Source: a virus | Taxonomy: Duplodnaviria; Caudoviricetes | Length of the DNA: 64,000 nucleotides | Virus record (IMG/VR): IMGVR_UViG_3300021400_000080 | Span: 1 to 64,000 of that record | Strand: one strand, 5' to 3' | Shown here: positions 33,898 through 50,871 of the stretch, piece by piece | Position numbering within the stretch: position 1 is the first letter of the stretch | Layout of the letters: each line of letters opens with the position of its first letter | Notes under the pieces: generated by a model | The model's database searches: none | Told to the model about the DNA's origin: nothing | The model's input: only the letters and a program-made list of their open reading frames with translations | Made by a program: the position numbers and the translations under genes

Positions 33898-35394
33898 ATG
33901 ACACGCACATACGCACAACCGCTGCACAATCCGGAGAAGTTCACGCTCAAGGAACATCAGACCTTCGCATCAGAGATGATGGAGAACGTGGAATGTCTCG
34001 CCCTTTTCTACGAGGCGGGAACAGGAAAGACCATGTGCGTACTCGATTGGGCCTACCGCGCGGTCGAGAGAGGGGATCTGAACTCCCTCCTGGTGATATG
34101 TCCCGCCAACATCGTGGGGGTATGGACATCAGCGGTCGATAAGATGATCGAGTTCGAGGGATACACCAAGGACGGCATCGCCCGGCTCAAGAGCATCATG
34201 ACCGTCCGTTCGTTCCAAAAGACCTACAAGACGGAGACCCGCGAGGTACAGCACAGGAACGGCAGCAAGGGACAGAAAAAGACCCGCGACATCCGTCCGG
34301 ACATCAACCGCTATTGGGGAGCCATAGTCGTGGACGAGTCGCACAGTATTGGCGCGCACCAATCCGTCCAGACGAAGGCCGCCCTCGCCCTCGCCATGAA
34401 AGCATCCAAACGGTTCATCCTCACAGGCACACCCGTGTCGGGAGGAGGAGGCGCGGGAGATTATAAGAAACTCTACGGACAACTGAAATTCCTGGACAAC
34501 ACGGTATGGGCATCGTGGACGGACTTCTGCAAGAGGTATGTGCTGGCTTTCGACGTGTTCCGCAACCCCGTCCGTTACCGCGAGGCCGAGTTGAAGAAAC
34601 TGATGGAGGACTACGGGATCGTCGCAAGACTGGACATGTGCTACGACATGCCGGATTCGTCCGAGATCGTCATCCCGTGCGAGTTGAAGGAACCCCAGGC
34701 ATACAAGCGTATCCGTGAGGGAGATACCGCCACCTACGGATTCGAGATACGCACGGGAGGGGGTCAGTACATCAAGCTGCTGGAACTCGTGTCCGGATTC
34801 GTCAAGACCGACGATAAGGAGGTATCCCCCGGCAAATTCACCAAGGAAGTGCTGAAATTCAAGTGCGAGAAACAGGATGCCCTCAAGACCATCATCACGG
34901 GAACGGACGATAAGGTCGTGGTATTCTGCAAATTCCGTGAGAGCATAGACGATGCCTACGAGGTATGCTCCAAGATGGGCGAGACGGTCGTGTTCGACGG
35001 TCGGTCCAACAAGGACACATGGCGCGACTTCCAGTACGGGGATGCCCGCTATCTGATCTGCCAGTACCAGTCGGGAGGGGTCGGACTCGATCTCTACGCG
35101 AGTCACACGATGGTATTCTACGAACCGGAATGGTCCTCCCTGCTGCTGGAACAGGCGAAGGCGCGTATCCGGAGGAAAGGTCAGACCAAACGCTGCATCT
35201 ACTACTGGCTGTCCACGAAGGGGACCATCGAGGAAGATGCGATCCAGTCCGTGAGGAACGGAGTCACCGTCACCACCGAACTCCTTGAGATGTGGGCGAA
35301 ACGCGAGATGAAGAACACGGTCAGCAACGACGATGAAGATGAGGACAACCCCGACACCGACAACCCGGATGAGACGGGAGAATCCGAGATATGA
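33898..35394 (+). CDS. SNF2-like SF2 helicase
   Basis: EAGTGKT, VVDESH, LTGTP, GGVGLDL, EQAKARIRRKGQ. Confidence 0.9.
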   Translation: MTRTYAQPLHNPEKFTLKEHQTFASEMMENVECLALFYEAGTGKTMCVLDWAYRAVERGDLNSLLVICPANIVGVWTSAVDKMIEFEGYTKDGIARLKSIMTVRSFQKTYKTETREVQHRNGSKGQKKTRDIRPDINRYWGAIVVDESHSIGAHQSVQTKAALALAMKASKRFILTGTPVSGGGGAGDYKKLYGQLKFLDNTVWASWTDFCKRYVLAFDVFRNPVRYREAELKKLMEDYGIVARLDMCYDMPDSSEIVIPCELKEPQAYKRIREGDTATYGFEIRTGGGQYIKLLELVSGFVKTDDKEVSPGKFTKEVLKFKCEKQDALKTIITGTDDKVVVFCKFRESIDDAYEVCSKMGETVVFDGRSNKDTWRDFQYGDARYLICQYQSGGVGLDLYASHTMVFYEPEWSSLLLEQAKARIRRKGQTKRCIYYWLSTKGTIEEDAIQSVRNGVTVTTELLEMWAKREMKNTVSNDDEDEDNPDTDNPDETGESEI

Positions 35395-35720
35395 CATGGA
35401 GAGAACGCAAGGCAAGGCGCACGATATGGAGATACTGGAACCGCAGGATGTCCCTCATCGGGCGCAGATTGAGGGAGACCACGACATCCGACGAGGATCT
35501 TGTGGGGTAGTGGGATGCGTGTTCCTCCGAGAGCAAGGACAGATTCGTGAAGGACATCAGGTCGCAGTTGGAGAACCAGCACACGGAATACGGGGAGGAC
35601 TACCGCACGTTCGCCATCCTGGACGAGTCGTGCGCGGTCCTGTTGGGTATCGAGTACACCATAGCCATGGCGAGGGTGAGGATAGCCAAGAAGAGGGCAT
35701 CCCGTGTATTCCTCAATTGA
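35391..35720 (+). CDS. Hypothetical protein with in-frame TAG at codon 40 (35508-35510)
   Basis: ATGA overlap with the SNF2 stop; MTWRERK...DLVG*WDACSSESKDRFV...VFLN-TGA; coding-type codon usage on both sides of the TAG. Confidence 0.7.
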
Positions 35721-35724
35721 CCGA

Positions 35725-35753
35725 GTATGTGATTGTATGGAAATGTATATAAT
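35725..35753 (+). promoter_or_regulatory. Promoter-like element shared with the MTase C-subunit gene
   Basis: 18-bp identity plus TATA-like tail. Confidence 0.6.
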
Positions 35754-35793
35754 CGTACGAGATAATCGAGGAATACCGAAAGGTGAAATGCGA

Positions 35794-36531
35794 ATGACAG
35801 ACGAGAATAAAGCGATTCTGGATAAGGTCGCGCAACTGTCCGAGAGGATAGCCGCGTGCGACTGGACCCCGGACGGAGAGTACCCCGTGAAGGGCAAACC
35901 CCTCCGTTATGTCACCGGGAAGAAGATCAAGCGCACCCTCCGTCCTATCCTCAACGAGATGGGCATCGTGTTCCGCTACGACATGGCAGACGTTCAGTCG
36001 CTACCGGCATGCGGGGTCAAGGAGAACCACGTCCTCATCAGGGGATTCGTCACCCTGACCGACAAGGTAACGGGTCAGTCCATCCAATACTCCGTCATAT
36101 CGGAGGGCGCGGATGCGGGCGATAAGGCGGTCATGTCGGGAGCCGCGTATGCGAAGAGGTTGTTCTGGATAAGCAATTTCGACATCGTGGACGGCATGGA
36201 GAACACCGAGGACGAGGGAGGGGTCTCATCCTCCGATGTCGCGGCCAATCTCATCAGACAGGCGATCCCCGAAACCCCCGCACCGACCCCGACCCCCGTC
36301 CATCCCGTCACCGGATCCGCGGGCGAACCCGTCACATCGCCCGGAGAGGGCAACATCGCCAAGATGCAGGTCCGTGCTATGGACAACGCACTGGCGGCCA
36401 TCAAGAGGGCAGACGACGAGGGACGTATCCTCCACGAATACTACGAGAAGGCACTTGAGATCCGCAAGAAGGCATCCTGCAAGGAGGATGTCGAAGCTCT
36501 GCTCAACATCAAGAGGGAACTCGGACTATGA
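35794..36531 (+). CDS. ERF-family single-strand annealing protein
   Basis: LRPILNEMGI...GADAGDKAV..GAAYAKRLF..SNFDI. Confidence 0.75.
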   Translation: MTDENKAILDKVAQLSERIAACDWTPDGEYPVKGKPLRYVTGKKIKRTLRPILNEMGIVFRYDMADVQSLPACGVKENHVLIRGFVTLTDKVTGQSIQYSVISEGADAGDKAVMSGAAYAKRLFWISNFDIVDGMENTEDEGGVSSSDVAANLIRQAIPETPAPTPTPVHPVTGSAGEPVTSPGEGNIAKMQVRAMDNALAAIKRADDEGRILHEYYEKALEIRKKASCKEDVEALLNIKRELGL

Positions 36532-37565
36532 GGAACTATGTGGCTCCCCGCTATCCGTTCACCATCGCGGATAACCGTGTCTACACGGAGGCCGACGAAG
36601 TATACCATGTGACGGGGACATCCATCGGTGCGCTGCTCGGTCAGTCACCGTGGGAATCCCCGTTCACGGCATCCGCGAAACTGCTCGGATTGTGGCTCGA
36701 AGCGGATGTCGGGGACAAGCCGGCAGTGAACACCGGAAAGGTACTCGAAGAGAGGATCATCGACTACGTTGCGGAGAAACACCCGGATGTCGGACAGTTC
36801 TTCCGTGCGGAGGATCTGTTCGCACCCCGCGAGGGGGACCATGAGAAGTGGCCCTCCGATTTCGAGGATGAGGATTTCCACGGCCATGTCGATGGTATAA
36901 TCTCGAAGGACGGAGTGGACTACATCCTTGAGGTCAAGACCGTGAACGAACGCGGCCTTTCCGCATGGAACGGCTCGATCCCCGCCCATTACCTCTGGCA
37001 AGTGTATCTCTACAATCACTTCCTGACCCAACAGGATAAGGCATATTTCGCTATCGGACTCGTGAACAGCGACACCTACGCGAACCCCTATGTGTGGGTC
37101 CCGAACAAGAACAACTGCCTGCTCATCGAGGTCCCGATAGACCGCGAGATGGTAGCCGCCAAGATCGAAGAGGTACGCGCTATCCGTCATAAGATCGTGG
37201 AGGAACGTGCTACGCTCCCCGCTGATTTCAACGATCCGCGCGATAAGGAACTCATGGTACATCTCATGGACATCTCCGGGGACACCGACAGACTGTTGGA
37301 TGCCACCGCACGTTATGAGGAACTCATGAGACAGATCGACGAGGCCGAGTCGAGGATAAAGCCGCTGAAGGACCAAGCCGAGGACTACAAGACACGCATC
37401 AAGGACATGATGGTCGCACATTCGCTGTCCAGGTGCGCCAATCTCAATCTGACTACGCAGACCCGCGAAACGTTCGATTTCGCCAAGGCGCGCGCGGATG
37501 GATTGAACATCGACCCGTACACCAAAACCACAACCACGAAGATATTAAGGAGGTCTAAGATATGA
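36528..37565 (+). CDS. YqaJ/lambda-exonuclease-family nuclease
   Basis: TGTSIGALLG..PWES, GHVDG, LEVKT, YLWQVYLY. Confidence 0.85.
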   Translation: MRNYVAPRYPFTIADNRVYTEADEVYHVTGTSIGALLGQSPWESPFTASAKLLGLWLEADVGDKPAVNTGKVLEERIIDYVAEKHPDVGQFFRAEDLFAPREGDHEKWPSDFEDEDFHGHVDGIISKDGVDYILEVKTVNERGLSAWNGSIPAHYLWQVYLYNHFLTQQDKAYFAIGLVNSDTYANPYVWVPNKNNCLLIEVPIDREMVAAKIEEVRAIRHKIVEERATLPADFNDPRDKELMVHLMDISGDTDRLLDATARYEELMRQIDEAESRIKPLKDQAEDYKTRIKDMMVAHSLSRCANLNLTTQTRETFDFAKARADGLNIDPYTKTTTTKILRRSKI

Positions 37566-38014
37566 TTACACCTACACCCTGGATTCTAAGCAGCATGGTC
37601 GCAAAAGCAACCGTCCCTCTCTGCGAGGGCAACCACACCCTTCAGATCACGGAGGCATCGTTCAAGGACGATGAGAACTACTACTCCCTCACCCTCAAGT
37701 CCCTCGACGAAGAGGACGAGCAGTCCACCCTCCGCTACTACATCATCAAGAAGGACGGGACCAGGAACGAACAGGCCATCGGCACGCTGAACAAACTCGG
37801 ACACTGCATTTTCGGACTTCCGGAGGATCAGGTCGGAATCCCCAACCCGGAGGACATCGTGAACGGCATCGTCAGGGGATTCGTCAAGCACAATGTCTAC
37901 GAGGGCAAGGAGTTCGTGAACATCTACGAGTACACCCCCGTAGACAAAAAGACCCTTGAGATCGCCAAGGAATCCGGCATCACCGTTCTGGACCAGTACG
38001 CAATCGAGGGATGA
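37562..38014 (+). CDS. Putative OB-fold ssDNA-binding protein (DUF669-like)
   Basis: EGNHTLQITEA...VKHNVYEGKEFVNI; located in the recombination module. Confidence 0.55.
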   Translation: MITPTPWILSSMVAKATVPLCEGNHTLQITEASFKDDENYYSLTLKSLDEEDEQSTLRYYIIKKDGTRNEQAIGTLNKLGHCIFGLPEDQVGIPNPEDIVNGIVRGFVKHNVYEGKEFVNIYEYTPVDKKTLEIAKESGITVLDQYAIEG

Positions 38015-38304
38015 GTATGGTATTCGTCCGTACATCCACCATCAAGAACAAGGGGAACGGACGGGTAATCTACATCCCCGCAGAATGGGGATTCAAGGCG
38101 GGGGATTGGGTCACTATCCGCATGGCTAAAACCGGTGCGACGTGGCCCTATTCCCTCACGACCCGTATCAAGCCGCAGAAAACGGGATCGGATTACATCA
38201 ATATCCCCCCCGAATGGCCGTTGTTCATCGGGGATATGGTCGATGTGAAGATCACCTATGCAGACATCCCCAGGACGGAGATGGCGAAGGATGCCAACCC
38301 CTGA
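38011..38304 (+). CDS. Tandem AbrB-like DNA-binding protein
   Basis: IYIPAEWGFKAGDWV and INIPPEWPLFIGDMV repeats. Confidence 0.6.
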   Translation: MSMVFVRTSTIKNKGNGRVIYIPAEWGFKAGDWVTIRMAKTGATWPYSLTTRIKPQKTGSDYINIPPEWPLFIGDMVDVKITYADIPRTEMAKDANP

Positions 38305-38620
38305 ACAGCTCATCAAGAGGGACCTCAAGAGGTTCATCGAGGGCATCGGGGGTTATTGGGTATCCGTCCAAGGGGGACCCGGCTCCAAGCCGGGGGACCC
38401 CGACATCATCGCATGTATCGACGGAAGGTTCATCGGCATCGAGGCCAAGACCGACACGGGAAGATAGTCGGAGATCCAAAAGCACCGCTGCGAACAGATA
38501 ATGTCGGCAGGGGGAGTCTATCTTACTGTGCGGTCGTTGGAGGACCTTAGACAAGGACTCCGCGATGCGGGGATTCCCGGACTCCGAGACGGGCGCGAAA
38601 CCCGTCCTAAAACCCCTTAA
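38291..38620 (+). CDS. VRR-NUC (PD-D/ExK) nuclease/resolvase with in-frame TAG at codon 59 (38465-38467)
   Basis: GDPDIIACIDGRFIGIEAKTDTGR*SEIQKHRCEQIMSAGGVYLTVRSLEDL; the conserved SxxQ...GG...RS.ED half lies after the TAG. Confidence 0.9.
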
Positions 38621-38692
38621 CCACTTTTCGATTATCCATTAGTCCTAACACCACGAAATACCTTAAATAGTCCATATTTTGATTCATTCATC

Positions 38693-38935
38693 ATGGCAGA
38701 TATGATGGACAAAACCATTAGCGCGATACTCACTGCGTTCGTCGCGGTGATATTGATCGCTTCTGCGTTCATCCCTACTGCCATTCAGCAGATCGACACT
38801 CTCAACGACAAGTACGGGTCGGATGTAGCGGGTTACACCGCACTCATCTCGACGGTCATCATTGTGACGATTGTCGGTATCATAATCGGCATAGTGAAAA
38901 CCTACTCCTCCGGAAAAGGCGATGGAGACCGTTGA
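38693..38935 (+). CDS. Two-helix hydrophobic protein, spindle-virus capsid-like (minor/divergent)
   Basis: Two hydrophobic helices, F-I-P turn motif, 80 aa. Confidence 0.6.
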   Translation: MADMMDKTISAILTAFVAVILIASAFIPTAIQQIDTLNDKYGSDVAGYTALISTVIIVTIVGIIIGIVKTYSSGKGDGDR

Positions 38936-38962
38936 TCTGACGAATATCGGAAGGTATGAACA

Positions 38963-39205
38963 ATGAACACCGAAGATTTCACCAGCAAAGTTGTCGGCAT
39001 CGTGATTGCCGTCATCGTGATCGCGGTCGTTGCCATCCCCATCATCAATGGCATGATCGGAACCGACGGAACCCCTGAGGGATCCACCTACCCCATCCAG
39101 TCCGGCTCCACCGAAGCTACCATCATCAAGGTCATCCCCATCTTCCTCATCCTGGCCGTCCTGATGGGAGTCGTCTACATGTTCCTCAACGGAAAGAAGA
39201 ACTGA
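38963..39205 (+). CDS. Spindle-shaped-virus-type major capsid protein (SSV1 VP1/VP3-like)
   Basis: VVGIVIAVIVIAVVAIPIIN...TIIKVIPIFLILAVL parallels SSV1 VP1 as I recall it (LFIFILIGIVLLPVIV...TLLNLVPLFYILVLI). Confidence 0.7.
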   Translation: MNTEDFTSKVVGIVIAVIVIAVVAIPIINGMIGTDGTPEGSTYPIQSGSTEATIIKVIPIFLILAVLMGVVYMFLNGKKN

Positions 39206-39218
39206 AGGAGGCATGAAA

Positions 39219-39434
39219 ATGAACACCGAAGATTTCACCAGCAAGGTTGTCACCGTTGTCATCGCGGTCATCGTGATTGCTGTCGTGGCCATCCCCGTCA
39301 TCAATCAGGCGGCCGAGGAAAGCGGAGCCGACAACACCACCAAGACCATCCTGGGAGTCATTCCCATCTTCCTCATCCTGGCCGTCCTCATGACCGTGGT
39401 CTACATGTTCATGAACGGCAAGAAGGACAACTGA
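39219..39434 (+). CDS. Second spindle-virus-type capsid protein paralog
   Basis: Near-identical helices to 38963-39205; two 26-bp identical DNA blocks. Confidence 0.7.
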   Translation: MNTEDFTSKVVTVVIAVIVIAVVAIPVINQAAEESGADNTTKTILGVIPIFLILAVLMTVVYMFMNGKKDN

Positions 39435-39444
39435 TCGCAGAACC

Positions 39445-39478
39445 ACGGGGGGTAGGGTTTACCCCCCAACCTTTTTTC
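39445..39478 (+). terminator. GC hairpin plus T-tract after the capsid operon
   Basis: GGGGGGTAGGGTTTACCCCCC-AACCTTTTTT. Confidence 0.7.
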
Positions 39479-39616
39479 ACGACTGCGTAGTTTTTATACA
39501 TCCCACTCATTAGGAGGATTGAGGTTGCCTACATCCTCCGGGGGGTTCTCGATTCCTCCCCCCGATATTCCTTTTTTGTATGCACGTTTTATAAACCACG
39601 TTTCCGATAATCGAGT

Positions 39617-42127
39617 ATGCAGACAGGAATGAAAGCGGGTCTTGCAATCGTCCTCGCGGTATTCCTCACGGGCATCGTGGGGTTCCTCACCGCAGTCGTG
39701 CCGGAGGACGAGGAAAGGACCTATTACGACCAAGTGAGCGATCTGACTCCGATTGTGGATGCCAGCGCAATCGACTCGTACACGGAATATAACCCGGTGA
39801 CGAATGTCAGCGGATGGGCGAACATAGAAGGTGTGACGATCCCCACATTAACGACTGGCATATCTGCATATCCGTACAGATATACCACTGCCGGAGAGGA
39901 TAGCGATATATCCAGATCGGTGAAGTTCGCAGCAGTCCTCGATGAATATCCTGATGATCCAGAGAAGTCATATTTCTGGCCCGTTGCTAAAATCTATTCG
40001 TTGTATGAATCCTCAATCCCTAACAGTATCGAGTACAACGATGTAGAGATAGCAACGTCGGGCAGAGGTAATATAAGCGTAACCAAGGAGTATCAGGAAG
40101 GGGAATCGTTCGCAATCTGCATACTCCACATAGATACGCAAACGGCACAGCCAATCCATCAATTCACATACGAGGTCCACGTTAGTCCAACGTCTCAAAA
40201 CAATTTCCGTCAGACCATCTCGACACTGGCGGTATTGGATAACCAGACATCGAGGACGATAACCGTGGGATGGGGGGAGAACTTCGAGTTACAGATCAAT
40301 GTGTCATTGGGCGCACATCAGACCATCCGTGTGGACATGTTATCCCACGAAGGATATAGAGGACAGAATATCTTGTTAGATAATGGCGAGATCGTCAATG
40401 GTTTTTCATCGAATCCGGTATCGCCTAAAGAATATTACGGAGGGGGATTGGATCAGCAGTATGCCCAAGGCGCACCTTCCACACGCACGACCTCTATCTC
40501 CAATTATCTTGTAGTGGACGGCCGCCATCTGACTACCGAATACGGAGCATACACCGTATATCCGCTGTCCATGTATTTCCCGCAGTCGGCATCCATCCAG
40601 GACGGGACCTTCATATCCATAGCCGGACTGAAATATGCGATGCCCACAACGTTCTATCATGGCACACGGACATGGGACGGCGGAGATTCAGGAGATGATG
40701 TATCGGGAACGTGCCGTACCAACATATCCTCGATAGGGTATGACCATCTTGTTTATGTCAAGGATAACGAGAAGTGGTATCCGGGAGTATTGTCCGAGAA
40801 CGGGTTGTATTATGAGGCCGACATGACTAAACCGGGATATGGTATCGACGAGATATTCATGTTCGCATACGGGTTCAAGCAAGCTGCGACAATCAATGCA
40901 ACGGAGATCGAGGTACAGTACGAATATATCGACGGTACTAAATTCGTTACAGTTGCAGACGGTATCACTGCGAAATGGTCCAATTACATGGACAGTACGG
41001 TAGGCGGCAAGACGGTGACGGTTCCCTATAACAACGGAGCAATCGTGCTTTTGACCGAGCCGGGAACAACCATATCGTCCGATAAAGTGTTCTATAAGGA
41101 CACCGACGGCAACGTGACCCAAGGTAGTATGACACTTACCGTTCCTACATCCATCCCCTACTCGATGGCCCGTGTGACGTTGGACTTCCAGAACAATACC
41201 TACTATGCACAGGGTATCGTGTGGGGATCCATCGACGAGGACGAGAGGGGAACGGGCAACTGGACCCTCCGTCCTTACCAGTATCCGATCTCAATCGGAC
41301 TGAATGGCATCCCTGACGTATCCTACGTCCAGGGGATCTCCGTTGAAAAAGCCGGGGGAACCAAGGTATTCGTTCTTGAGACCAGCGTGCAGACCGACCC
41401 GATGGGCAGATTATGGGGTGATCCCACCATCTATCTCGGATACTTCTTCCCTGACTACTTCACCCACGACAGTGCAACCGGCAACACGGGAGTACCTACG
41501 ACCGCCATCCGTATGCTCATCAACGGAGTTGTGAGTTACGGGACCTCGCTGACTATCAACGGACAGTATATGCCCGTGGCAGACGGGAACATCACGTTCA
41601 CCTACTACACCTACGAGACGGAGACCATTCCCTCCACCGACCCGAACGTCCCGCCTACAACCAACACGATCACCGTCACCAACGAGGGCAACATGCCGGT
41701 CAAGGGTATGGCGATAGATTGGGAGGATGGGCATGTCTATCTTGTGTTCACCGAACAGGGTAAGACCCGTTACGATCTCGGAGAATACGATACGACCGCG
41801 GCCAATGTGGTCATCGCGGGTACGGACACAGGGAAGGACACCGTTGTAACGGACATCATAAGCGGAACGGGGACATGGTATTGGCAGTCCAACCTCTACA
41901 CGATTAACCACGAGATCGAAACGGTCCTCAAACTCGACCTCACACAAGGTTTGTCGGGTTGGGGAATGACGTTACAGGTCTCGATGCTGCTCTTCGCGGG
42001 TATGCTCATCGTGGGGGTTGCCATCGTCCACTACTACTACCGCGACTCCGACGAACCGATGGGAATCCTTGATTGGGTTATTATAGGATTAGCGATATTG
42101 TTATGCTTAGGAGTTGCAGCAATATGA
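39617..42127 (+). CDS. Large membrane-anchored virion protein (tail/terminal fibre candidate)
   Basis: 836 aa; N-terminal TM, Thr/Tyr/Gly-rich beta body, two C-terminal TMs. Confidence 0.7.
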   Translation: MQTGMKAGLAIVLAVFLTGIVGFLTAVVPEDEERTYYDQVSDLTPIVDASAIDSYTEYNPVTNVSGWANIEGVTIPTLTTGISAYPYRYTTAGEDSDISRSVKFAAVLDEYPDDPEKSYFWPVAKIYSLYESSIPNSIEYNDVEIATSGRGNISVTKEYQEGESFAICILHIDTQTAQPIHQFTYEVHVSPTSQNNFRQTISTLAVLDNQTSRTITVGWGENFELQINVSLGAHQTIRVDMLSHEGYRGQNILLDNGEIVNGFSSNPVSPKEYYGGGLDQQYAQGAPSTRTTSISNYLVVDGRHLTTEYGAYTVYPLSMYFPQSASIQDGTFISIAGLKYAMPTTFYHGTRTWDGGDSGDDVSGTCRTNISSIGYDHLVYVKDNEKWYPGVLSENGLYYEADMTKPGYGIDEIFMFAYGFKQAATINATEIEVQYEYIDGTKFVTVADGITAKWSNYMDSTVGGKTVTVPYNNGAIVLLTEPGTTISSDKVFYKDTDGNVTQGSMTLTVPTSIPYSMARVTLDFQNNTYYAQGIVWGSIDEDERGTGNWTLRPYQYPISIGLNGIPDVSYVQGISVEKAGGTKVFVLETSVQTDPMGRLWGDPTIYLGYFFPDYFTHDSATGNTGVPTTAIRMLINGVVSYGTSLTINGQYMPVADGNITFTYYTYETETIPSTDPNVPPTTNTITVTNEGNMPVKGMAIDWEDGHVYLVFTEQGKTRYDLGEYDTTAANVVIAGTDTGKDTVVTDIISGTGTWYWQSNLYTINHEIETVLKLDLTQGLSGWGMTLQVSMLLFAGMLIVGVAIVHYYYRDSDEPMGILDWVIIGLAILLCLGVAAI

Positions 42128-42390
42128 TGTCACCGCAGGAGTTCATCGACATGCTTGCCCAGGCCTTCTTCCAGGGCAATACGCAGATCGCGGGCATAGT
42201 CGTGTTCACCGCTGTCCTCGCCATCATATACCTCCTGTTCGCGCAGAGGAATATCACCGTAGGTCTTATCCTTACCCTCCCTACGACCCTCGTGTTCTCG
42301 CTGATGGGTATTCTGCCGGAGGTCCTGACCATCCTCGTGGTGATCGTAACCATCCTCGCCCTCGTCCATAAGTTCAAGGAGATGTCGTGA
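42124..42390 (+). CDS. Small multi-TM virion membrane protein
   Basis: 88 aa, hydrophobic, ATGA-coupled. Confidence 0.75.
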   Translation: MMSPQEFIDMLAQAFFQGNTQIAGIVVFTAVLAIIYLLFAQRNITVGLILTLPTTLVFSLMGILPEVLTILVVIVTILALVHKFKEMS

Positions 42391-43619
42391 TGATAAGCAG
42401 TATGGGGGGTTCCATGCTCGCCAATGCCCTTTCGGGCGGCGGCGGAGCATCGGAATGGATGCACAAATGGATGCTCATAGGTTTGGGTATCCTGGTATTC
42501 ACCCCCCTGCTGTTCAGTCTGTGGTTCCCTACGGAGTATGAAGGCGAATATGCGGATGTTCAGAACGATATAGAGGAACAGTACCTCCACATGACCGGAT
42601 CCTACTCCACACCCCAACAGAACATCTGGACCCTGACGGGAATCTATACACCATACAATTCCGAGAAATTCGGCTGGACCGATGATGGCTGGCTGTATGG
42701 TTCGGAGGTCAAGACCTATTCCCCGTCGCAGTATCAATCGACCGATCAATTCCCCGGAACGCTGACAGTGAAAAAAGCGGATAACGGGATCTGGTATTAC
42801 ACGTCCGTACCCAACAACTTCCAGGGGATAACCCTCGCCACATGGGACGGGGATAAGGTCACCAATCCGAAGGAGGCATCCGTCTATTCGAGCATCTATT
42901 TCGATAATGCCCACAAGTCGGACAGATTCTTCACCACTACCACGAAAACGGAGACCGCCCAGGGATACTACTACGATTATTCGGGATACAGATACACCTA
43001 TCAGCCGTTGAGCAACTACAATATCGACGTGTCAGGTACGATCACCAAGGTGGATAGGGATACGACATCCCTTTCCCTGATATGGTATCAGTATTCCACG
43101 TTAAGCGGCATAGCCGGGCAGCTCACTATATCGGGCAGCGATTCAGGGGTCAGTTATATCACGTCGGATGACATCATAAGAGTGTTCAACTCCGCGAACA
43201 GCACCGCAGTGTTCGACATGACCTTCAACGGGGTTCCCATGCATCTCCTTATCAGAATGGATCCCTCGCGCCTCGCGTGGTTGAGCGTAGCGGATTGTTA
43301 CAACAGCGGATACTGGAACGTCATGGTATACAGCGATGCGGTCGCGGCATCCCTCTCCGGGGACACCTACGAGTTCAACATCAATACGATGTGGGACACC
43401 ATCGTCAATATCTTCACATTCAACCTCGCCAATGAATACGACATCGACGGTTGGGAGGGATTCGTGGTATCCGTCCTGTTCTCGATGGTCCTCTACTCCG
43501 TCCTGCTCATCATCGCTATGGATCACCCCTTCGTGTTCATAATCATCGGACTGATAGGACTCATTCAGGCAGCTACATCGTTCCTCGGCAGCGGTTCGGG
43601 GTTGTTCGATTTCCTGTGA
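42387..43619 (+). CDS. Membrane-anchored structural protein
   Basis: 410 aa; N-terminal TM, beta-rich body, C-terminal TMs. Confidence 0.75.
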   Translation: MMISSMGGSMLANALSGGGGASEWMHKWMLIGLGILVFTPLLFSLWFPTEYEGEYADVQNDIEEQYLHMTGSYSTPQQNIWTLTGIYTPYNSEKFGWTDDGWLYGSEVKTYSPSQYQSTDQFPGTLTVKKADNGIWYYTSVPNNFQGITLATWDGDKVTNPKEASVYSSIYFDNAHKSDRFFTTTTKTETAQGYYYDYSGYRYTYQPLSNYNIDVSGTITKVDRDTTSLSLIWYQYSTLSGIAGQLTISGSDSGVSYITSDDIIRVFNSANSTAVFDMTFNGVPMHLLIRMDPSRLAWLSVADCYNSGYWNVMVYSDAVAASLSGDTYEFNINTMWDTIVNIFTFNLANEYDIDGWEGFVVSVLFSMVLYSVLLIIAMDHPFVFIIIGLIGLIQAATSFLGSGSGLFDFL

Positions 43620-43663: not shown

Positions 43664-44080
43664 ATGGCAGAATATTGGCTCTATTGGAGCAAGTTCGAGG
43701 ACAACAATAAACGTCCCGGACTGCCCGGAGGATTCAGGACCCTAAAGGATGCGCGCGAATGTGCGTATGAGAACGTTGTCACCAACCATCCCATCGAGAT
43801 CGACGGGTCGGGCGAGGTCATCAAGAAGATCAAGGGCATCGTCTACTCCGAGAAGTCGGGTCGTTCGGGACCTGTCCGTCAGCGTGTCCTCAAGGACGGT
43901 TCCGTGTCCAAGACCAAGATTTTCGTCAATCCCGTCAATACCGCAGCCAAACTTAAAGCCAAGACTGCATCCAAGACATCCTCCAAGACCAAGACCGCGC
44001 CCAAGAAGAAACGCAAATACGGGGAGATCCTGGGCGATGCAGCGGTCGAGTTCGGGTCCGGACTCCTTTCACATCTCTGA
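43664..44080 (+). CDS. Small basic protein (paralog family) with Lys-rich tail
   Basis: FRTLKDARECAY; KTASKTSSKTKTAPKKKRK. Confidence 0.7.
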   Translation: MAEYWLYWSKFEDNNKRPGLPGGFRTLKDARECAYENVVTNHPIEIDGSGEVIKKIKGIVYSEKSGRSGPVRQRVLKDGSVSKTKIFVNPVNTAAKLKAKTASKTSSKTKTAPKKKRKYGEILGDAAVEFGSGLLSHL

Positions 44081-44160: not shown

Positions 44161-45744
44161 ATGCTCAACAAGAAGATCGTATCCGTCCTCGCAGTCACGC
44201 TCATGCTGACTATGGGGGTCGGAGTTGTTTTCATCGGTAATGACGAGTCGGAGGCAGTCACGTCCGAAATGCCTGTTTCGTCAGTCGTGGGGGACGTGGA
44301 GACGTTGTTCTATACTTCCGTCCCGCCTGTACTGACAATGACTCAAAAGGTCGCTAACGGTACTTATTTCAATATCACCAACACATATAACGGACCTTGG
44401 GAATTTCTCATCAAAGGGATTAACGGCACGGCTACGGCAATCGGTTCGACTTCAGATGGCCTTCTTCATACTGCCCAGGGAATCTCTGGAACGTTATCGA
44501 CCAACCTGTCCACCCTTTCTATCGAGTGGGTGGCGCACAATGAGACAGAGGGAGTGGTTGAAGAAGAAGAATATTCATCTGTTTTCACCGTGGTAGACAC
44601 GGGAAGTTCGCAGAACAACCCCTATCTCGATACAATCTCCCTACCAGTCAAGATCTTCCAAATGACACAGGACTACTATGCTAACGTGGGAATCACGGTC
44701 AACCTCACCCACGAGACTGTGAACGGTCTTGAATACGGTGTGACTTCAGTCACATCTGGTTTCGGCTTGACTGTGGACAGCAACACTACAAGTCTATCGG
44801 GAACAATCTCGCACGCTGGAACGATTACCGTGGAGACTTATGTTACGGATGGACATGATATTGAGGAAGAAACTCACACAATCTACGTTACCGACTATAC
44901 TCACGCGGATGTCCGTATGATCGGAGGGGAGACGTGGACGTACACCCCCTCGACCAATATGACCTCTGTCCTGTCCATCTCCGGCACGGCTACCTCCTGG
45001 GTCTCCCTGACATCGGGAACGGTCAGTGGGACCGCGCCCACGAACACTTCCGTTGGGCAGACCTACGACCTCACCATAACCGCCTCGACCTCCGACCCCA
45101 ATCAGAACGTCACGCAGACGGTCACGTTCACCGTGGACCCGCAGATCACCCTGACCGCACCCGCCACTTACACCGTCCAGTTCGGCACGGATACCAGCAA
45201 CGTCCTCGGCAGCAACTTCGAGGACGGAACCAGGAACATCTACTCCATCACCGGGGGTACTGCCACGGGATTCACCGTGAACGCGGCAACGGGGGTATTG
45301 GGATGGAATAACCCCTCTGCGGGAACGATCACATTCACCGCTGCATCCCCCTACACATACACCAGCGGCGCGACCAACACGGCAACGGCTACCGTGGACG
45401 TGACCGTGACGGGTATCCTCACGGCATCCGTCTCCAGCACGCTCTACCTCGTTACGGGGAAAACGGTTCCCAACACCCCTGCCGAGGCAGTCACCCTCAA
45501 CCACAATGATGTCGGGGTTGGAACCTACACCTGGGCGGTCGTGGGAACGAACAACAGCGGAGTCACAGTGGCATCGGACGGCACATTGGGGGGTACTCCG
45601 GGAGCCGTCGGCAGCTACACCGTAACCATTCGCTGCACGTCCGTGGTAGGGAGTACGACACAGACCGCTGACACTACCCTCAACATCGTCATCGTCCAGG
45701 TCCTCGCTTTCACGTCCTTGCCCTCTTCGGGAACCGTCAGGTGA
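44161..45744 (+). CDS. Secreted Ig-like repeat (He_PIG-type) adhesin-like protein
   Basis: Signal peptide ending NDESEA; repeats such as VASDGTLGGTPGAVGSYTVTI. Confidence 0.75.
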   Translation: MLNKKIVSVLAVTLMLTMGVGVVFIGNDESEAVTSEMPVSSVVGDVETLFYTSVPPVLTMTQKVANGTYFNITNTYNGPWEFLIKGINGTATAIGSTSDGLLHTAQGISGTLSTNLSTLSIEWVAHNETEGVVEEEEYSSVFTVVDTGSSQNNPYLDTISLPVKIFQMTQDYYANVGITVNLTHETVNGLEYGVTSVTSGFGLTVDSNTTSLSGTISHAGTITVETYVTDGHDIEEETHTIYVTDYTHADVRMIGGETWTYTPSTNMTSVLSISGTATSWVSLTSGTVSGTAPTNTSVGQTYDLTITASTSDPNQNVTQTVTFTVDPQITLTAPATYTVQFGTDTSNVLGSNFEDGTRNIYSITGGTATGFTVNAATGVLGWNNPSAGTITFTAASPYTYTSGATNTATATVDVTVTGILTASVSSTLYLVTGKTVPNTPAEAVTLNHNDVGVGTYTWAVVGTNNSGVTVASDGTLGGTPGAVGSYTVTIRCTSVVGSTTQTADTTLNIVIVQVLAFTSLPSSGTVR

Positions 45745-45748
45745 CGGA

Positions 45749-46021
45749 ATGAAAGTGGATCCCGTAGCGATATTGGCCGTCGCCCTCTTCCTCGCGGGGA
45801 TGGCTGGCATAGCGATAGCGCACGCAGAAACCTACGACAACCCTCAAGACGAACCTAACCCCGTTGAACCGGAGATCGTGTCGCAGACGGAGGGATAGAC
45901 CCTCTACCGCCTTGACCTTCAGGGCGGTCCTCTCTACTACTACGAATGTGACACCGAGGACGGCACGATCACCAAGATAGTGGCGATAAAGACCGTCACG
46001 ATGGATATAGAAGTCGCGTAA
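45749..46021 (+). CDS. Small secreted/TM protein with in-frame TAG at codon 50 (45896-45898)
   Basis: MKVDPVAILAVALFLAG...QTEG*TLYRLDLQGGPLYYYECDTEDG...EVA-TAA; the TAA overlaps the AAACCTCTT end motif. Confidence 0.7.
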
Positions 46022-46121
46022 AACCTCTTAAAAATCCCCCTTCCTCAATATATCTATAATAAATGTTGCAGATAAGTTCAACATGGCATTGAACACGGCT
46101 TGTTCGTTGAATGAGCAAGGC

Positions 46122-49100
46122 ATGAGCATAAAATGGGTCGGTATCCTGATTTTAGGTATGGCCGCCCTATTTGGATGTATCGTAGCATTTGAATCGGATG
46201 ATGCGGATGCAGCTACCGCCAACCCCAATTATAGGGATGGGGATTGGGGTTATGATCTCGTTACGGAAAACGGTCTTACTACCGCCAAGATCGTATCATA
46301 CTCCGGAACAGGCGGGGGTGCGATAACCATCCCCACTACAATCGGAGGATATACCGTAACCCAGGTCGGTAAAAATGCAGACTACGGTAACAACAATGTT
46401 TTTGAACCGACATTGGTCGCAACCGATCTCATAATCCCCGATGGGATTTTGAAAATCAATAAGTTCGCATGTCAGAATCTTTCCAATTTCACGGGTACGT
46501 TAAGTCTCGGTAACACAGTAACTACGCTTGGGCTTAGTTGTTTTAGTAATGGTGGTTTTACAGGAACTCTGACACTGCCAAGAAGTATTACCACAATTAT
46601 TTATTCAACAGGTAATTACGCAGCATTTTACAATTGTGCCGGTTTCACGGAATTAGTTATCGAGAACGGTATGTCGGGGGACATCGGACATGATATGTTC
46701 CGTAATTGTACGGGATTCACGGGTGCATTGGTGATACCGGATAGTGTAACTTATATCGGAATGAGGGCATTTCAGGGTTGTTCCGGATTCACATCCTTGT
46801 CGATAGGATCCAACGTGACTACGATATATGATAGCGCATTTTACAATTGTACCGGATTCAAGGGCAGTCTCACGATTCCCGACAGTGTTACGACATTCGG
46901 AGGATATTATTCGAGTACCAACCAGGGTATATTCCAGAATTGCAGAGGATTCGACGGAGTATTGAAAATCGGTAATGGAATCACTAAAATTCCAGCAGCA
47001 TGTTTCATGAATTGCAGCGGATTCACCGAATTGATCTTAGGAAATTCCTTGACCGAGATTCAGGATTATTCGGATTATGGTGTATTTAAAGGTTGTACGG
47101 GATTGACGGGTAATCTTACGCTACCGAATACGCTTACCAAGATAGGTAACAGTGCGTTCGATGGATGCAGCGGCCTTACTGGAGCATTAGTGATACCCAA
47201 CAATGTAACATACATCGGATCAGTGGCTTTCAGGAATTGCAGCGGTTTCACTTCATTGACATTGAGTAACAGTCTTACCGAAATCAAGTCAAGTACGTTC
47301 AGCGGATGCACATCCATGACGGGTGATCTGATCATCCCTGACAGTGTGACAACCATATACTACCCATTCAGTTCTTCTTCTTCTACGAGCAGTCCTTTTT
47401 ACAATTGCGGTTTCGGAGGATCGTTGATTATAGGCGATGGACTTACAGCGGTTGGACAATACATGTTCGACGGATGCGTGTTCAACGATAATCTGGTTAT
47501 CGGAGATTCGATTACGGACATCCCATCTGGTGCATTTGCATGTTGTAAGACTGCGACAGGTACGCTTACCATCGGAAGCGGGGTTCAATCAATCGGAAAC
47601 AGCGTATTCTATCAGTATAAATTCACAGGGTCTCTCGTATTACCCAACGGTCTGAAAACCATCAGGGATCAGGCATTTGCTCAATGCACCGGATTCACGG
47701 GATCTCTTGTAATCCCGTCCACCGTGACAACGATCGGAGTCCATAGTTCATCCACATCAAATTCATCCGGAGCATTTAGAGGATGTACCGGATTCACGGG
47801 TGCATTGGTGATACCGGATAGCGTGACTTTACTCGGAGATAGGACATTCCAGGGATGCACGGGACTTACCGGAACATTGACGATAGGTACGGGGGTCACG
47901 GACATCAATCCGTATTGTTTCTATGGTTGTAAATTCACGGGTAATCTGAATATTCCCGGGAACGTGGTTAAGATTCTTGATTATGCGTTCGGCAACAATA
48001 CCGGATTCACATCCCTTACATTACAGGAAGGTCTCGATCTGATTTGGACCCGTGCATTTTCGGAGTGTACCGGGATGACGGGAGTGTTGGCAATACCTGA
48101 TTCCGTGACCACGTTGGGTCCGAAGTCGTATGCGAATGGTTGTTTCTACAATTGTTCCGGATTCACCGGACTGAACCTTGGAGACGGAGTGGAAATCATC
48201 GGGGATACCTGTTTCTGGAATTGTACCGCTATGGCAGGAAGTCTGATCATCCCGGATAGTGTGGAATATATCGGAAAGTGTGCATTTTATGAATGTGCCT
48301 TCGATGGTACTCTTACTATCGGGAATAATGTATCGGAGATAGGATACGGAGCATTTTACAGTTATAATCACGGATCGTTCATAGGCGATCTGGTAATCCC
48401 TGATAGTGTGACTGTGTTCGGGAATCCCAACAGTCAGGGTTATAATCAAGAGCCGATTTTCTGGTATGCGGGATTCACGGGTTCGCTGACTATCGGGAAC
48501 GGGATAACCGTCATTCCCCAAGGCACGTTCTATGGATGCGGATTCACAGGTACGCTTACCATCGGGAATAACGTGACACAGATAGGATCATACGATGGAA
48601 ATACAGGTGCTTTTGAGAATGTACCGTTCACAGGCGCATTGGTCATCCCGGATAGTGTGACTAAGATCATGGGACGTTCATTCAAGGGATGCAGCGGATT
48701 CACGACATTATCCCTCGGTTCGGGATTGACACAGATCACGGGATATGATACATTTAGGGATTGCACCGGATTCACGGGTGCATTGGTGATACCCGATACC
48801 GTCCAGTATCTCGGACCCAAAAATACATCAGGTACTACCTTTACAGGAGGTCGTGCGTTCATGGGATGTACGGGATTCACATTCCTTACCATCGGTAAGA
48901 ATGTGGAACTCATCGGACCCGGAACGTTCAGTGGATGTACGGGATTCAGAGGGGACCTGGTGATTCCCGACAGTGTTGTAGAGATCGCGTATGGATCATA
49001 TTATCATCCGGATACAACCACTCCCTTCTATAATTGCGGATTCGACGGTTCGCTCATCATCGGAGACGGGTTGTCAGCTGTTTATGACTATATGTTCAAC

Positions 49101-50087
49101 GGCTGTGCGTTCCAGAACGACCTTGTAATCGGAGATTCCATCGTAGGTATTCCCATAGGTACTTTTGACAGTTGCAGGAATTGTACGGGTACTCTGACCC
49201 TGGGAAACGGTCTGAAATCAATAGAGAGACAAGCGTTCAGCGGTTATAAATTCACAGGGGAATTGATACTTCCCGAAGGAATGACTGAATTGAAATACGG
49301 TGCTTTTGAGAATTGCAAGGGATTCACGGGACCTCTTGTCATTCCGGATAGCATGATAACCTTGGGTAATAACAATTCATCGAATAATGATGGGGTATTC
49401 GCAGGTTGTTCCGGATTCACATCCCTTGTCCTCGGCAGCTCGCTTGAGATGATAGGCCGCAGTACTTTTGCATCATGCACCGGTATGACAGGCGATCTGA
49501 TAATCCCGGATAGCGTGACTGTGATCGGATACAATGCGTTCAACGGTTGTTCATTCACATCATTGGATATAGGCAGCGGATTAACGTCCATTCCCGGACA
49601 GGCATTTTACGGAAATAAATTCGCAGGAACACTGGTGATCCCGGATAATATACAGACGATAGCAAGCCACGCATTTTATTTCAATAATAATTCAAGAGTG
49701 GATACATTGGTGTTGGGTAGGGGACTCACATCCATCGGAACTTACTCATTCGATACAGCGTATGCAGCACAATCCAGACTGGATAATATCGTGGCATTAT
49801 CCGACCCCACTATCGGCACGGGTGCGTTCAGAGGATCAACAGTATCCCAAATCCTGAATCTGACTGGTTCGGATCTGACCAATGTCGTACCTGGAAACGG
49901 AGACATCCCCTCGACAGCTACGATCCGCACAGCTTTCGAGGATACGGCTATGCTCCAACACACTACCGAGACCATCGTGGTAGATAAAGAAGGGATGGAA
50001 TACAGTATCATGCGGGTGATCCCGATTATAATGGCATTGGCAATACTGATCGGGGTTGCATATTACATCAGGGGGAATAAGATATGA
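46122..50087 (+). CDS. BspA-type (LRR_5) leucine-rich repeat adhesin ending in a capsid-like helix
   Basis: Dozens of LxIPDSVTxIGxxAFxxCxGFTG repeats; signal ...SDDADA; C-terminus SIMRVIPIIMALAILIGVAY. Confidence 0.9.
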   Translation: MSIKWVGILILGMAALFGCIVAFESDDADAATANPNYRDGDWGYDLVTENGLTTAKIVSYSGTGGGAITIPTTIGGYTVTQVGKNADYGNNNVFEPTLVATDLIIPDGILKINKFACQNLSNFTGTLSLGNTVTTLGLSCFSNGGFTGTLTLPRSITTIIYSTGNYAAFYNCAGFTELVIENGMSGDIGHDMFRNCTGFTGALVIPDSVTYIGMRAFQGCSGFTSLSIGSNVTTIYDSAFYNCTGFKGSLTIPDSVTTFGGYYSSTNQGIFQNCRGFDGVLKIGNGITKIPAACFMNCSGFTELILGNSLTEIQDYSDYGVFKGCTGLTGNLTLPNTLTKIGNSAFDGCSGLTGALVIPNNVTYIGSVAFRNCSGFTSLTLSNSLTEIKSSTFSGCTSMTGDLIIPDSVTTIYYPFSSSSSTSSPFYNCGFGGSLIIGDGLTAVGQYMFDGCVFNDNLVIGDSITDIPSGAFACCKTATGTLTIGSGVQSIGNSVFYQYKFTGSLVLPNGLKTIRDQAFAQCTGFTGSLVIPSTVTTIGVHSSSTSNSSGAFRGCTGFTGALVIPDSVTLLGDRTFQGCTGLTGTLTIGTGVTDINPYCFYGCKFTGNLNIPGNVVKILDYAFGNNTGFTSLTLQEGLDLIWTRAFSECTGMTGVLAIPDSVTTLGPKSYANGCFYNCSGFTGLNLGDGVEIIGDTCFWNCTAMAGSLIIPDSVEYIGKCAFYECAFDGTLTIGNNVSEIGYGAFYSYNHGSFIGDLVIPDSVTVFGNPNSQGYNQEPIFWYAGFTGSLTIGNGITVIPQGTFYGCGFTGTLTIGNNVTQIGSYDGNTGAFENVPFTGALVIPDSVTKIMGRSFKGCSGFTTLSLGSGLTQITGYDTFRDCTGFTGALVIPDTVQYLGPKNTSGTTFTGGRAFMGCTGFTFLTIGKNVELIGPGTFSGCTGFRGDLVIPDSVVEIAYGSYYHPDTTTPFYNCGFDGSLIIGDGLSAVYDYMFNGCAFQNDLVIGDSIVGIPIGTFDSCRNCTGTLTLGNGLKSIERQAFSGYKFTGELILPEGMTELKYGAFENCKGFTGPLVIPDSMITLGNNNSSNNDGVFAGCSGFTSLVLGSSLEMIGRSTFASCTGMTGDLIIPDSVTVIGYNAFNGCSFTSLDIGSGLTSIPGQAFYGNKFAGTLVIPDNIQTIASHAFYFNNNSRVDTLVLGRGLTSIGTYSFDTAYAAQSRLDNIVALSDPTIGTGAFRGSTVSQILNLTGSDLTNVVPGNGDIPSTATIRTAFEDTAMLQHTTETIVVDKEGMEYSIMRVIPIIMALAILIGVAYYIRGNKI

Positions 50088-50785: not shown

Positions 50786-50871
50786 ACCTCTTACCCCCCT
50801 ACGGGGGATTTATATTCTATCACCATAATTTCCGTTCCATAGGGTATTTATAACCTTACGAGGCCGAGAAT

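Follow-up and report, generated by a model that had tools for sequence, protein, structure and literature searches.

The window analysed here is a stretch of 64,000 nucleotides (positions 1 to 64,000 of the IMG/VR virus record IMGVR_UViG_3300021400_000080), and coordinates refer to it unless stated otherwise. Three tandem genes on the + strand, at 38693-38935 (80 aa, hairpin A), 38963-39205 (80 aa, hairpin B1) and 39213-39434 (73 aa, hairpin B2), each encode a small protein with two hydrophobic stretches scoring 2.7-3.4 on the Kyte-Doolittle scale. They are followed on the same strand by genes for membrane proteins of 836 aa (39617-42127), 87 aa (42127-42390) and 410 aa (42387/42390-43619, the ATG at 42390 being the likely start). 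This confirms the arrangement proposed in a sequence-only reading, although the length range of 71-80 aa given there for the small proteins is slightly off, the shortest being 73 aa, and the protein described as 88 aa has 87 residues.

The three small proteins are paralogues. All share I27-P28 after helix 1. Across 15 homologues A18, V19, A23 and P28 are invariant, and across 91 homologues P28 is the only invariant column. Hairpin A is the most conserved of the three (59-100% identity among relatives), with 35 close homologues on contigs of up to 76 kb, and an AlphaFold2 model predicts a two-helix hairpin (helices 2-41 and 43-73, pLDDT 78), like SSV19 VP1 as described in PMC9351363. Hairpin B1, with a longer and variable loop, is 24-27% identical to A and clearly related to B2, which matches the family profile at E 1.3e-31.

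The three genes form their own short unit. A TATA-box-like element, TTAAATA (38663-38669, + strand), is centred 27 nt upstream of the ATG of hairpin A, with no Shine-Dalgarno sequence between, and is the presumed archaeal promoter of a leaderless transcript. A similar TTWAWAW box lies at -25 to -32 of the ATG in 9 of 24 + strand genes, against a background of 0.0096 per window (P about 8e-13). Directly after the third gene, a GC-rich stem-loop (39447-39477, + strand; 9-bp stem with 6 GC pairs) followed by TTTTTT resembles a terminator. RNA-library contigs from three studies end at 39386-39440, and in these libraries the only or deepest contigs lie on the hairpin genes. However, this is only a weak hint; assembled contigs cannot rank expression, and parts of the stretch without contig cover are not evidence of silence.

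The hairpins are sequence relatives of capsid proteins of spindle-shaped archaeal viruses, although this homology emerges only with profiles. Hairpin A matches Pfam His1_capsid (PF25665) at E 2.1e-5 and 24.8 bits, just under the curated cut-off of 27; B1 gives a weak hit to VP1_VP3 (PF06281; E 0.014, 15.8 bits against a cut-off of 25) and B2 has no specific hit. Of 91 family members, 26 hit His1_capsid and no other family is hit by more than 4. The best PDB hit of the family profile is SSV19 VP1 (7xdi_A; 7XDI is identified as SSV19 in PMC9351363) at E 4.7e-5, the next hit being at 0.014. In hhalign comparisons the profile matches His1 VP21 at 92.4% (E 5.2e-7), over 62 columns spanning both helices, and SSV1 VP1 at 93.2% (E 3e-7). 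In contrast, 24 control sequences, comprising 21 other His1 and SSV1 small or membrane proteins together with the 87-aa protein and the C-terminal tails of the 410- and 836-aa proteins, score 13% or less. The match to VP3 is also weak (6%). Moreover, against 1.84 billion proteins the profile retrieves a protein, P0137 (E 6.3e-6), that is a bona fide His1_capsid member (E 8.6e-29). Foldseek searches with the hairpin model against the PDB and BFVD returned only generic helical hairpins (E of 0.58 or worse), a 75-residue hairpin being too simple for fold search. No SMV1 or ATV capsid chain appeared among the PDB hits of the hairpin profiles, a comparison by sequence only that does not exclude a relationship.

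The window is part of a complete record of 75,709 bp with 107-bp direct terminal repeats (CheckV 100%). Scans of its ORFs and six-frame searches of the complete genome with Pfam models for terminase, portal and HK97 capsid (PF05065, PF03354, PF03237 and PF04860) found nothing, whereas these models give hits in control genomes; the absence noted in the sequence-only reading for 64 kb thus extends to the whole record. A tailed virus whose head and packaging genes are too diverged to detect, with the hairpins as accessory membrane proteins, is therefore very unlikely, even though most ORFs have no annotation. Similarly, VirB4, coupling protein and HerA/DUF87 ATPases (PF03135, PF02534 and PF01935) are absent in six frames. 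This argues against the hairpins being pilins of an archaeal conjugation or DNA-import apparatus, or holin- or viroporin-like proteins, of a plasmid-like element. Small two-helix membrane proteins are common in many systems, the genome carries a serine recombinase, and 2 of the 91 family members hit T4SS_pilin at E about 8e-4. However, the far more frequent His1_capsid hits, the specificity of the profile among the small membrane proteins of His1 and SSV1, and the position of the three genes at the head of a large conserved block of exported proteins make this alternative improbable as well.

The gene order is conserved in two diverged lineages from other samples (relatives L004, L005, L006, L007 and L009-L013), with 3-4 hairpin genes followed by proteins of 814-1113 aa, 88-89 aa and 384-426 aa. 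The 836-aa protein has one N-terminal and two C-terminal hydrophobic helices and is 39-58% identical to its orthologues, with conserved ends and few invariant columns between about residues 90 and 380. It carries 12 N-x-S/T sequons per 1000 aa, against 2-6 in the replication proteins. The 87-aa protein has three hydrophobic helices (residues 21-39, 45-63 and 65-83), and the start of its gene overlaps the stop of the 836-aa gene, as B78 overlaps C792 in SSV1; its orthologues overlap the upstream gene by 4 nt. The 410-aa protein is the most conserved hallmark of the group, being 64-96% identical among the aligned relatives, with 425 homologue clusters, none of which has a Pfam domain or a name. 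Its AlphaFold2 model (pLDDT 73.6) predicts a helix at 21-46, strands within 78-317 and helices within 332-401, with hydrophobic helices at both ends of a beta-rich core.

No similarity of these three proteins to known virion components was detected. The 836-aa protein has no Pfam, PHROG or PDB match and no similarity to SSV1 C792 or His1 ORF27, and the 87-aa protein none that is significant to B78 or His1 ORF24. No hhalign hit exceeded 2.3% between the 410- or 836-aa profiles and any His1 or SSV1 ORF of 100 aa or more, PDB sequence searches with both profiles gave no hit, fold searches gave no clear match, and ESM Atlas searches no usable hit. Homologues of VP4, B210 or C131 are not detectable, but such proteins are not conserved between the known families either. 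Neither hairpin A nor the 410-aa protein found a tblastn match in 50,697 deposited phage and archaeal-virus records, and IMG/VR holds only one relative of the 410-aa protein. By position and topology alone, the 836-aa protein is a candidate tail-spike or receptor-binding protein (an inferred VP4-like role) and the 410-aa protein a candidate capsid-to-tail adaptor or structural anchor. A further P-loop protein of 291 aa (record positions 67172-68047) hits phrog_5484, 'DnaA-like replication initiation protein', at E 1.2e-7 and Pfam Zot/nSTAND3 weakly; it resembles SSV1 B251 only over 41 residues around the P-loop.

Abutting the capsid operon is a recombination block (33898-38620, + strand) encoding a SNF2 helicase, an Erf-like annealing protein, a YqaJ/RecE exonuclease, a 150-aa protein and an Hjc resolvase. 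It is collinear with positions 45272-50024 of Caudoviricetes sp. vir335 (BK063680.1; 83 kb, baboon faeces, host recorded as Methanomassiliicoccales), with identities of 41.7%, 26%, 41%, 32% and 46%. A D5-type primase (30%) and a C5 methyltransferase (43%) are also shared. The tailed-phage-like replication module suggested by the sequence-only reading is therefore real. However, vir335 has readily annotated HK97 capsid, protease, portal, TerL, tape-measure and major tail genes, none of which has a BLASTP hit at E<1e-5 in the present genome, and it lacks the 410-aa hallmark.

Several observations support a Methanomassiliicoccales-like host in addition to this link. The Hjc-type Holliday-junction resolvase gene (38291-38620, + strand) contains an in-frame TAG at 38465-38467 that must be read as a residue: with TAG=K the product matches Pfam Hjc across the TAG (E 6.9e-5, 23.2 bits, cut-off 21.1) and aligns without a gap, at 47% identity, to the 121-aa vir335_00047. 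TAG almost never ends genes in this genome. A genome-wide list of ORFs extended through TAG was too noisy to use, and only the Hjc case was validated; readthrough in the 530-aa gene was rejected, because that gene ends in TGA. The archaeal-type promoters and the origin of relatives from bovine and sheep gut point in the same direction. Scans of GTDB species genomes for a provirus or host link were uninformative: the 410-aa alignment found nothing and the D5 alignment only a 26%-identical gene in a Lachnospiraceae MAG.

Taken together, these data support, with reasonable confidence, the interpretation that 38693-43619 is the core virion module of a double-stranded DNA archaeal virus whose coat is built from hydrophobic alpha-hairpin proteins of the kind that forms the lemon-shaped shells of Fuselloviridae, Halspiviridae and Thaspiviridae. 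Hairpin A, possibly together with B1 and B2, may pack through its hydrophobic helices into helical strands enclosing the DNA, as SSV19 VP1 does. In SSV19 the tail proteins dock to VP1 through hydrophobic three-helix bundles (PMC9351363). Here, the presumably translationally coupled 836-, 87- and 410-aa proteins each carry three hydrophobic helices in total and could form the terminal structure that nucleates the hairpin lattice and binds the host, with the 836-aa protein as the variable host-recognition component. The host would be an archaeon that decodes TAG as a residue, most probably a gut Methanomassiliicoccales, and the virus a chimera of a recombination block shared with a head-tailed virus of that host order and a virion module of the archaea-specific spindle type.

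The spindle morphology itself is inferred from the rule that characterised viruses with this capsid family are spindle-shaped. The fold does not by itself dictate a spindle, since the rod-shaped virus APBV1 also uses a hydrophobic alpha-hairpin capsid protein (PMC9351363). A rod-shaped, pleomorphic or vesicle-like particle, for example with a lipid-containing envelope wrapping a large genome that encodes many membrane-anchored display proteins, is possible but unlikely: the sequence similarity is specifically to His1 VP21 and SSV VP1, no pleolipovirus family was hit in the Pfam and PHROG scans, and the fusion-protein resemblance is below the noise level of the tool itself. Size is no obstacle, as metagenomic ANME-1 viruses predicted to be spindle-shaped reach 72.6 kb (PMC9894754).

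His1 VP21 is similar in size (73 aa), and its gene is also followed by small proteins with three transmembrane helices and larger proteins with a signal sequence and a C-terminal anchor (ORF23-27). However, His1 has a 14.5-kb linear genome, a protein-primed PolB, a single capsid gene and a halophilic host, whereas the present genome has three paralogues and a D5/SNF2/RecE/Erf replication-recombination set. SSV1 likewise has paralogous capsid genes and a large exported protein followed by an overlapping small hydrophobic one, but SSV genomes are circular, 15-24 kb long and integrate through a tyrosine integrase, and no N-terminal propeptide like that of SSV1 VP1 is evident here. The ANME-1 viruses (Itzamnaviridae and the candidate Tepeuviridae; PMC9894754) share hydrophobic alpha-helical capsid proteins, large genomes, a split into structural and enzymatic arms and, in some cases, several capsid genes. 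They come from deep-sea hydrothermal sediments and encode family B DNA polymerases; the tepeuvirus PBV144 (72.6 kb) is incomplete and has one capsid gene. Eurekaviridae (Methanosarcina spindle-shaped virus 1; PMC12451623) is the classified spindle-type virus of a methanogen, and its taxonomy proposal, which counts it among small spindle-shaped viruses, states that none had been classified before it. Its host order is different (Methanosarcina) and it comes from anaerobic digesters; neither hairpin A nor the 410-aa protein found a match in the phage collection, but it is not known whether this genome is included.

The capsid profile also matches five other proteins encoded on the + strand. Proteins of 652 aa (50872-52830) and 619 aa (59524-61383) are capsid hairpins with about 590 and about 550 aa inserted in the loop. 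In the former, residues 5-33 match profile positions 6-34 and residues 624-647 match positions 49-72 (whole-protein E 3.3e-8), with Gly/Ser-rich stretches at both ends of the insert. In the latter, residues 2-37 match positions 4-39 (E 7.9e-7) and residues 588-616 match positions 47-75 (E 4.2e-5; whole-protein E 2.6e-13). A 176-aa protein (53175-53705) has a small inserted domain (two matched stretches, whole-protein E 2.8e-6). The C-terminal anchor of a 1334-aa BspA-type leucine-rich-repeat protein (46083-50087; Pfam LRR_5 E 1.1e-166) matches helix 2 only (residues 1293-1328 to positions 34-71, E 2.6e-4), and the N-terminus of the 233-aa protein whose gene overlaps its stop (50084-50785) matches helix 1 only (residues 3-39 to positions 5-41, E 8.1e-5). 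Of the 150 best hits of the profile in the 1.84-billion-protein library, 62 share the architecture of helix 1, insert, helix 2. It seems possible, although this remains tentative, that the capsid hairpin doubles as a modular display scaffold. If these subunits co-polymerise with the plain hairpins, the shell itself would carry adhesins and other binding domains over its whole surface, a natural capsid-display system in an archaeal gut virus, combined with use of the host's pyrrolysine codon and a recombination module exchanged with tailed viruses.

Methanomassiliicoccales are among the main methylotrophic methanogens of animal guts, including the rumen. In the papers and deposited genomes that could be searched, the latter appearing to include those deposited by Medvedeva et al. 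2023 (Nat Microbiol), since vir335 was found among them, their recorded viruses are head-tailed or pleomorphic, and in the 2025 ICTV update the only spindle-type family for a methanogen is Eurekaviridae (PMC12451623). The present genome would extend the His1/SSV capsid lineage to a gut methanogen order and, at 75.7 kb, would be the largest complete genome of that capsid type among those covered by the literature consulted. It also gives a clean case of module exchange between virus realms, the same recombination cassette abutting an HK97 head-tail module in one virus and a hairpin-capsid module in another, apparently in the same host order. The 410-aa hallmark protein is a practical marker for finding this widespread but uncatalogued group in gut metagenomes, and the loop-insertion proteins suggest how such shells acquire host-binding functions.

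Three ORFs on the + strand, at 38693-38935 (80 aa), 38963-39205 (80 aa) and 39213-39434 (73 aa), each encode two strongly hydrophobic stretches and share an Ile-Pro directly after the first helix; Pro28 remains the only invariant column across 91 homologues. The second and third genes are close paralogues and the first, hairpin A, is 24-27% identical to them. AlphaFold2 models hairpin A as a two-helix hairpin with helices 2-41 and 43-73 (pLDDT 78). A TTAAATA box is located 27 nt upstream of the first ATG with no intervening Shine-Dalgarno sequence, and a 9-bp GC-rich stem followed by TTTTTT lies directly after the third gene, at 39447-39477. Downstream are genes for an 836-aa protein (39617-42127) with one N-terminal and two C-terminal hydrophobic helices, an 87-aa protein (42127-42390) with three hydrophobic helices, whose start overlaps the preceding stop, and a 410-aa protein (42387/42390-43619) with hydrophobic helices at both ends. 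The sequence-only reading, which had described three tandem hydrophobic hairpins of 71-80 aa followed by three membrane proteins, is therefore correct apart from the trivial "71 aa".

The window represents bases 1-64000 of a 75,709-bp IMG/VR virus record with 107-bp direct terminal repeats and a CheckV completeness of 100%, so that the whole genome could be examined. Six-frame Pfam searches revealed no TerL_ATPase, Terminase_6N, HK97 Phage_capsid or Phage_portal and no VirB4, T4SS coupling protein or HerA/DUF87, although the same models gave hits in the control genomes. Pfam and PHROG scans of the ORFs identified a D5-type primase-helicase, an SNF2 helicase, an Erf-like annealing protein, a YqaJ/RecE exonuclease, two DNA methyltransferases, a transglutaminase-like protein, a BspA-type LRR protein, a serine recombinase, two P-loop ATPases and an HNH nuclease, none of which belongs to a head-tail module. 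One of the methyltransferases, a C5 cytosine methyltransferase (18861-20135, - strand), is interrupted by an intein (Pfam Intein_splicing E 5.6e-10, Hint_2). The small serine recombinase (genome 63893-64717, - strand, partly beyond the window; Resolvase E 7.9e-32) and a DnaA-like/Zot-like P-loop ATPase (genome 67172-68047; phrog_5484 E 1.2e-7) lie in the 11.7 kb outside the window, and the ATPase may correspond to the AAA+ ATPase shared by spindle-shaped viruses.

Several independent lines of evidence indicate that the hairpins are capsid proteins of the spindle type. Hairpin A hits Pfam His1_capsid at E 2.1e-5 (24.8 bits, just under the 27-bit cut-off); individual hairpins remain below the curated threshold. 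A profile of 15 family members, run against 1.84 billion proteins, retrieved 257 relatives. Among 91 small members, 26 hit His1_capsid at E of 0.01 or better, whereas no other family was hit by more than four and T4SS_pilin was hit by two. Against all PDB sequences, the best hit of the 91-member profile is 7xdi_A "VP1" at E 4.7e-5, the next being 300-fold weaker; 7XDI is the SSV19 structure (PMC9351363). Comparison of the profile using hhalign gave 92.4% (E 5.2e-7, 62 columns across both helices) against His1 VP21 and 93.2% (E 3e-7) against SSV1 VP1. As a specificity control, the same profile was compared with 21 other small or membrane proteins of His1 and SSV1, including five with two or three transmembrane helices, and with the 87-aa protein and the C-terminal helices of the 836- and 410-aa proteins. 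None scored above 13%. The signal is therefore not mere hydrophobic composition. Moreover, one protein retrieved by the profile (P0137, E 6.3e-6 library-wide) is a tandem bona fide His1_capsid member (E 8.6e-29). Fold searches with so small a hairpin were uninformative.

The order of three or four hairpin genes followed by genes for a large protein, an 88-89-aa protein and a 384-426-aa protein recurs in relatives from other samples, down to 59% capsid identity (locus L004) and in a second lineage at about 49% identity (loci L009-L013), always directly downstream of the D5, SNF2 and YqaJ genes. One second-lineage relative (L010, positions 48734-68958 of an ENA scaffold of 106,931 bp) resides on a contig longer than the present genome, which may be a larger virus, a concatemer or an integrated copy with host flanks. 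Two close relatives carry a reverse-transcriptase gene (Pfam RVT_1; L005:17795-18619 and L007:9343-10356) just upstream of a 727-aa protein in the structural arm. This may be a diversity-generating retroelement acting on a binding protein. The ORF scans found no reverse transcriptase in the window itself. Runs containing the stretch or its relatives are animal-gut metagenomes, largely bovine and sheep, from ten studies. In RNA libraries of three studies the only or deepest contigs fall on the hairpin genes and stop at 39386-39440, just before the terminator-like hairpin; since these are assembled contigs, this provides only a weak hint of high expression.

The 410-aa protein is the most conserved component (64-96% identity among the aligned relatives), with 425 homologue clusters, none of which has a Pfam domain or a name. 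Its predicted structure (pLDDT 73.6) has an N-terminal hydrophobic helix, a beta-rich core (78-317) and C-terminal hydrophobic helices (332-401). The 836-aa protein has conserved ends and a variable region at about residues 90-380 and is rich in N-x-S/T sequons compared with the replication proteins, a pattern typical of host-recognition proteins. No sequence or structural relative was found for any of the three downstream proteins, and the comparison with known spindle viruses is one of arrangement only. In SSV1, the 792-aa terminal-fibre gene C792 is overlapped by the small hydrophobic B78 gene. In His1, the capsid gene is followed by small three-helix proteins and by larger proteins with a signal sequence and a C-terminal anchor. 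In SSV19, the tail-spike VP4 and the adaptor B210 dock to VP1 through hydrophobic three-helix bundles (PMC9351363). Here, each of the three proteins has three hydrophobic helices in total. It is therefore proposed, by inference, that they form the terminal structure that nucleates the hairpin lattice, of which the 836-aa protein would be the receptor-binding component.

A multi-copy family of small soluble proteins, beginning M-x-x-Y-(Y/W) and with a conserved A-R-(K/R)-x-A motif about 30-40 residues in, is scattered between the structural genes (window 43664-44080, 54471-54836, 55894-56250, 56969-57349 and 61443-61754; genome 70446-70805 and 71167-71496). These have no Pfam or PHROG match, and their resemblance was judged by eye only. 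Two 211-aa proteins with N-terminal signal or anchor sequences (58085-58720 and 58772-59407) are encoded on the - strand inside the + strand structural arm, where the overlapping 379-aa + strand ORF (58313-59452) looks spurious.

Among 50,697 deposited phage and archaeal-virus genomes, the best matches of the D5 (29.7% identity, E 1e-46), SNF2 (41% identity, E 9e-112) and YqaJ/RecE (41% identity, E 2e-73) proteins are in BK063680.1, "Caudoviricetes sp. vir335", whose host is recorded as Methanomassiliicoccales; for YqaJ/RecE this is the only match. vir335 is a genuine head-tailed virus with annotated HK97 capsid, protease, portal, TerL, tape-measure and major tail proteins. All-against-all BLASTP reveals a collinear shared block in which window 33898-38620 (SNF2, Erf, RecE, a 150-aa protein and Hjc) corresponds to vir335 45272-50024. 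The primase and the C5 methyltransferase (43% identity) are also shared, but no structural protein is. In vir335 this block abuts tail genes, whereas here it abuts the hairpin operon.

The last gene of the block, encoding the Hjc-type resolvase (38291-38620), carries an in-frame TAG (38465-38467). Read through, it passes the Pfam Hjc cut-off across the TAG and aligns at 47% identity, without a gap, to the 121-aa vir335 homologue across the TAG. Moreover, TAG ends only 2 of 96 selected ORFs, against 72 for TGA and 22 for TAA, although the trinucleotide is not rare. Both points fit pyrrolysine decoding by the host. A TTWAWAW box is located 25-32 nt upstream of the ATG of 9 of 24 + strand genes, against a background of 0.0096 (P about 8e-13), which is the architecture of archaeal TATA promoters with leaderless mRNAs. 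A GC-rich hairpin with a T-run, followed by a TTTAWATA-like box 25-32 nt before the ATG, recurs between + strand genes of window 24000-62000, whereas many - strand genes instead have GGAGG-like sites and a repeated AAGAGGAATCGAAATG start context. Although no CRISPR or provirus link could be obtained and the inference rests on four indirect lines, the vir335 link, the TAG evidence and the archaeal-type promoters together with the ruminant-gut origin make a pyrrolysine-decoding gut archaeon, most likely Methanomassiliicoccales, the probable host.

The hairpin is not confined to the three small proteins. A search of all 649 ORFs of the genome with the capsid profile identified five further proteins, within window 46083-61383. 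In three of them large domains are inserted in the loop: a 619-aa protein (residues 2-37 match helix 1 and residues 588-616 match helix 2, E 2.6e-13), a 652-aa protein (E 3.3e-8) and a 176-aa protein (E 2.8e-6). In the other two the hairpin is split over overlapping genes: the C-terminus of the 1334-aa BspA-LRR protein matches helix 2 only and the N-terminus of the 233-aa protein, whose gene overlaps the stop of the LRR gene, matches helix 1 only. The hydrophobic helices of the 836-, 87- and 410-aa proteins are not hit. In the library-wide search, 62 of the 150 best hits are proteins of 143-651 aa, nearly all with helix 1 at the N-terminus and helix 2 at the C-terminus and commonly with Gly/Ser-rich stretches next to the helices; one, P0137, is instead a tandem of two hairpins. 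Their inserts match no Pfam family. This supports the view that the hairpin is an assembly element rather than a generic anchor, and it also underlies a more tentative "capsid display" interpretation.

Spindle-type viruses with this capsid family are known from Sulfolobales, halophiles, Thaumarchaeota and Thermococcales, to which metagenomics has added Asgard archaea, Bathyarchaeia, ANME-1 and Methanosarcina (PMC9894754, PMC12451623). Large predicted members exist in ANME-1, where PBV144, at 72.6 kb, is incomplete; they have a structural arm, an enzymatic arm and sometimes several capsid genes. Size and layout are therefore not unprecedented. No description of such a virus for Methanomassiliicoccales was found in the literature surveyed, which did not extend to the key paper on methanogen viruses (Medvedeva et al. 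2023), and no deposited genome among those searched carries the hallmark 410-aa protein. Although particle morphology is inferred, the virus probably represents a new family-level group of hairpin-capsid viruses in gut methanogens, with a recombination module shared with tailed viruses, use of TAG as a sense codon and a widespread loop-insertion architecture.
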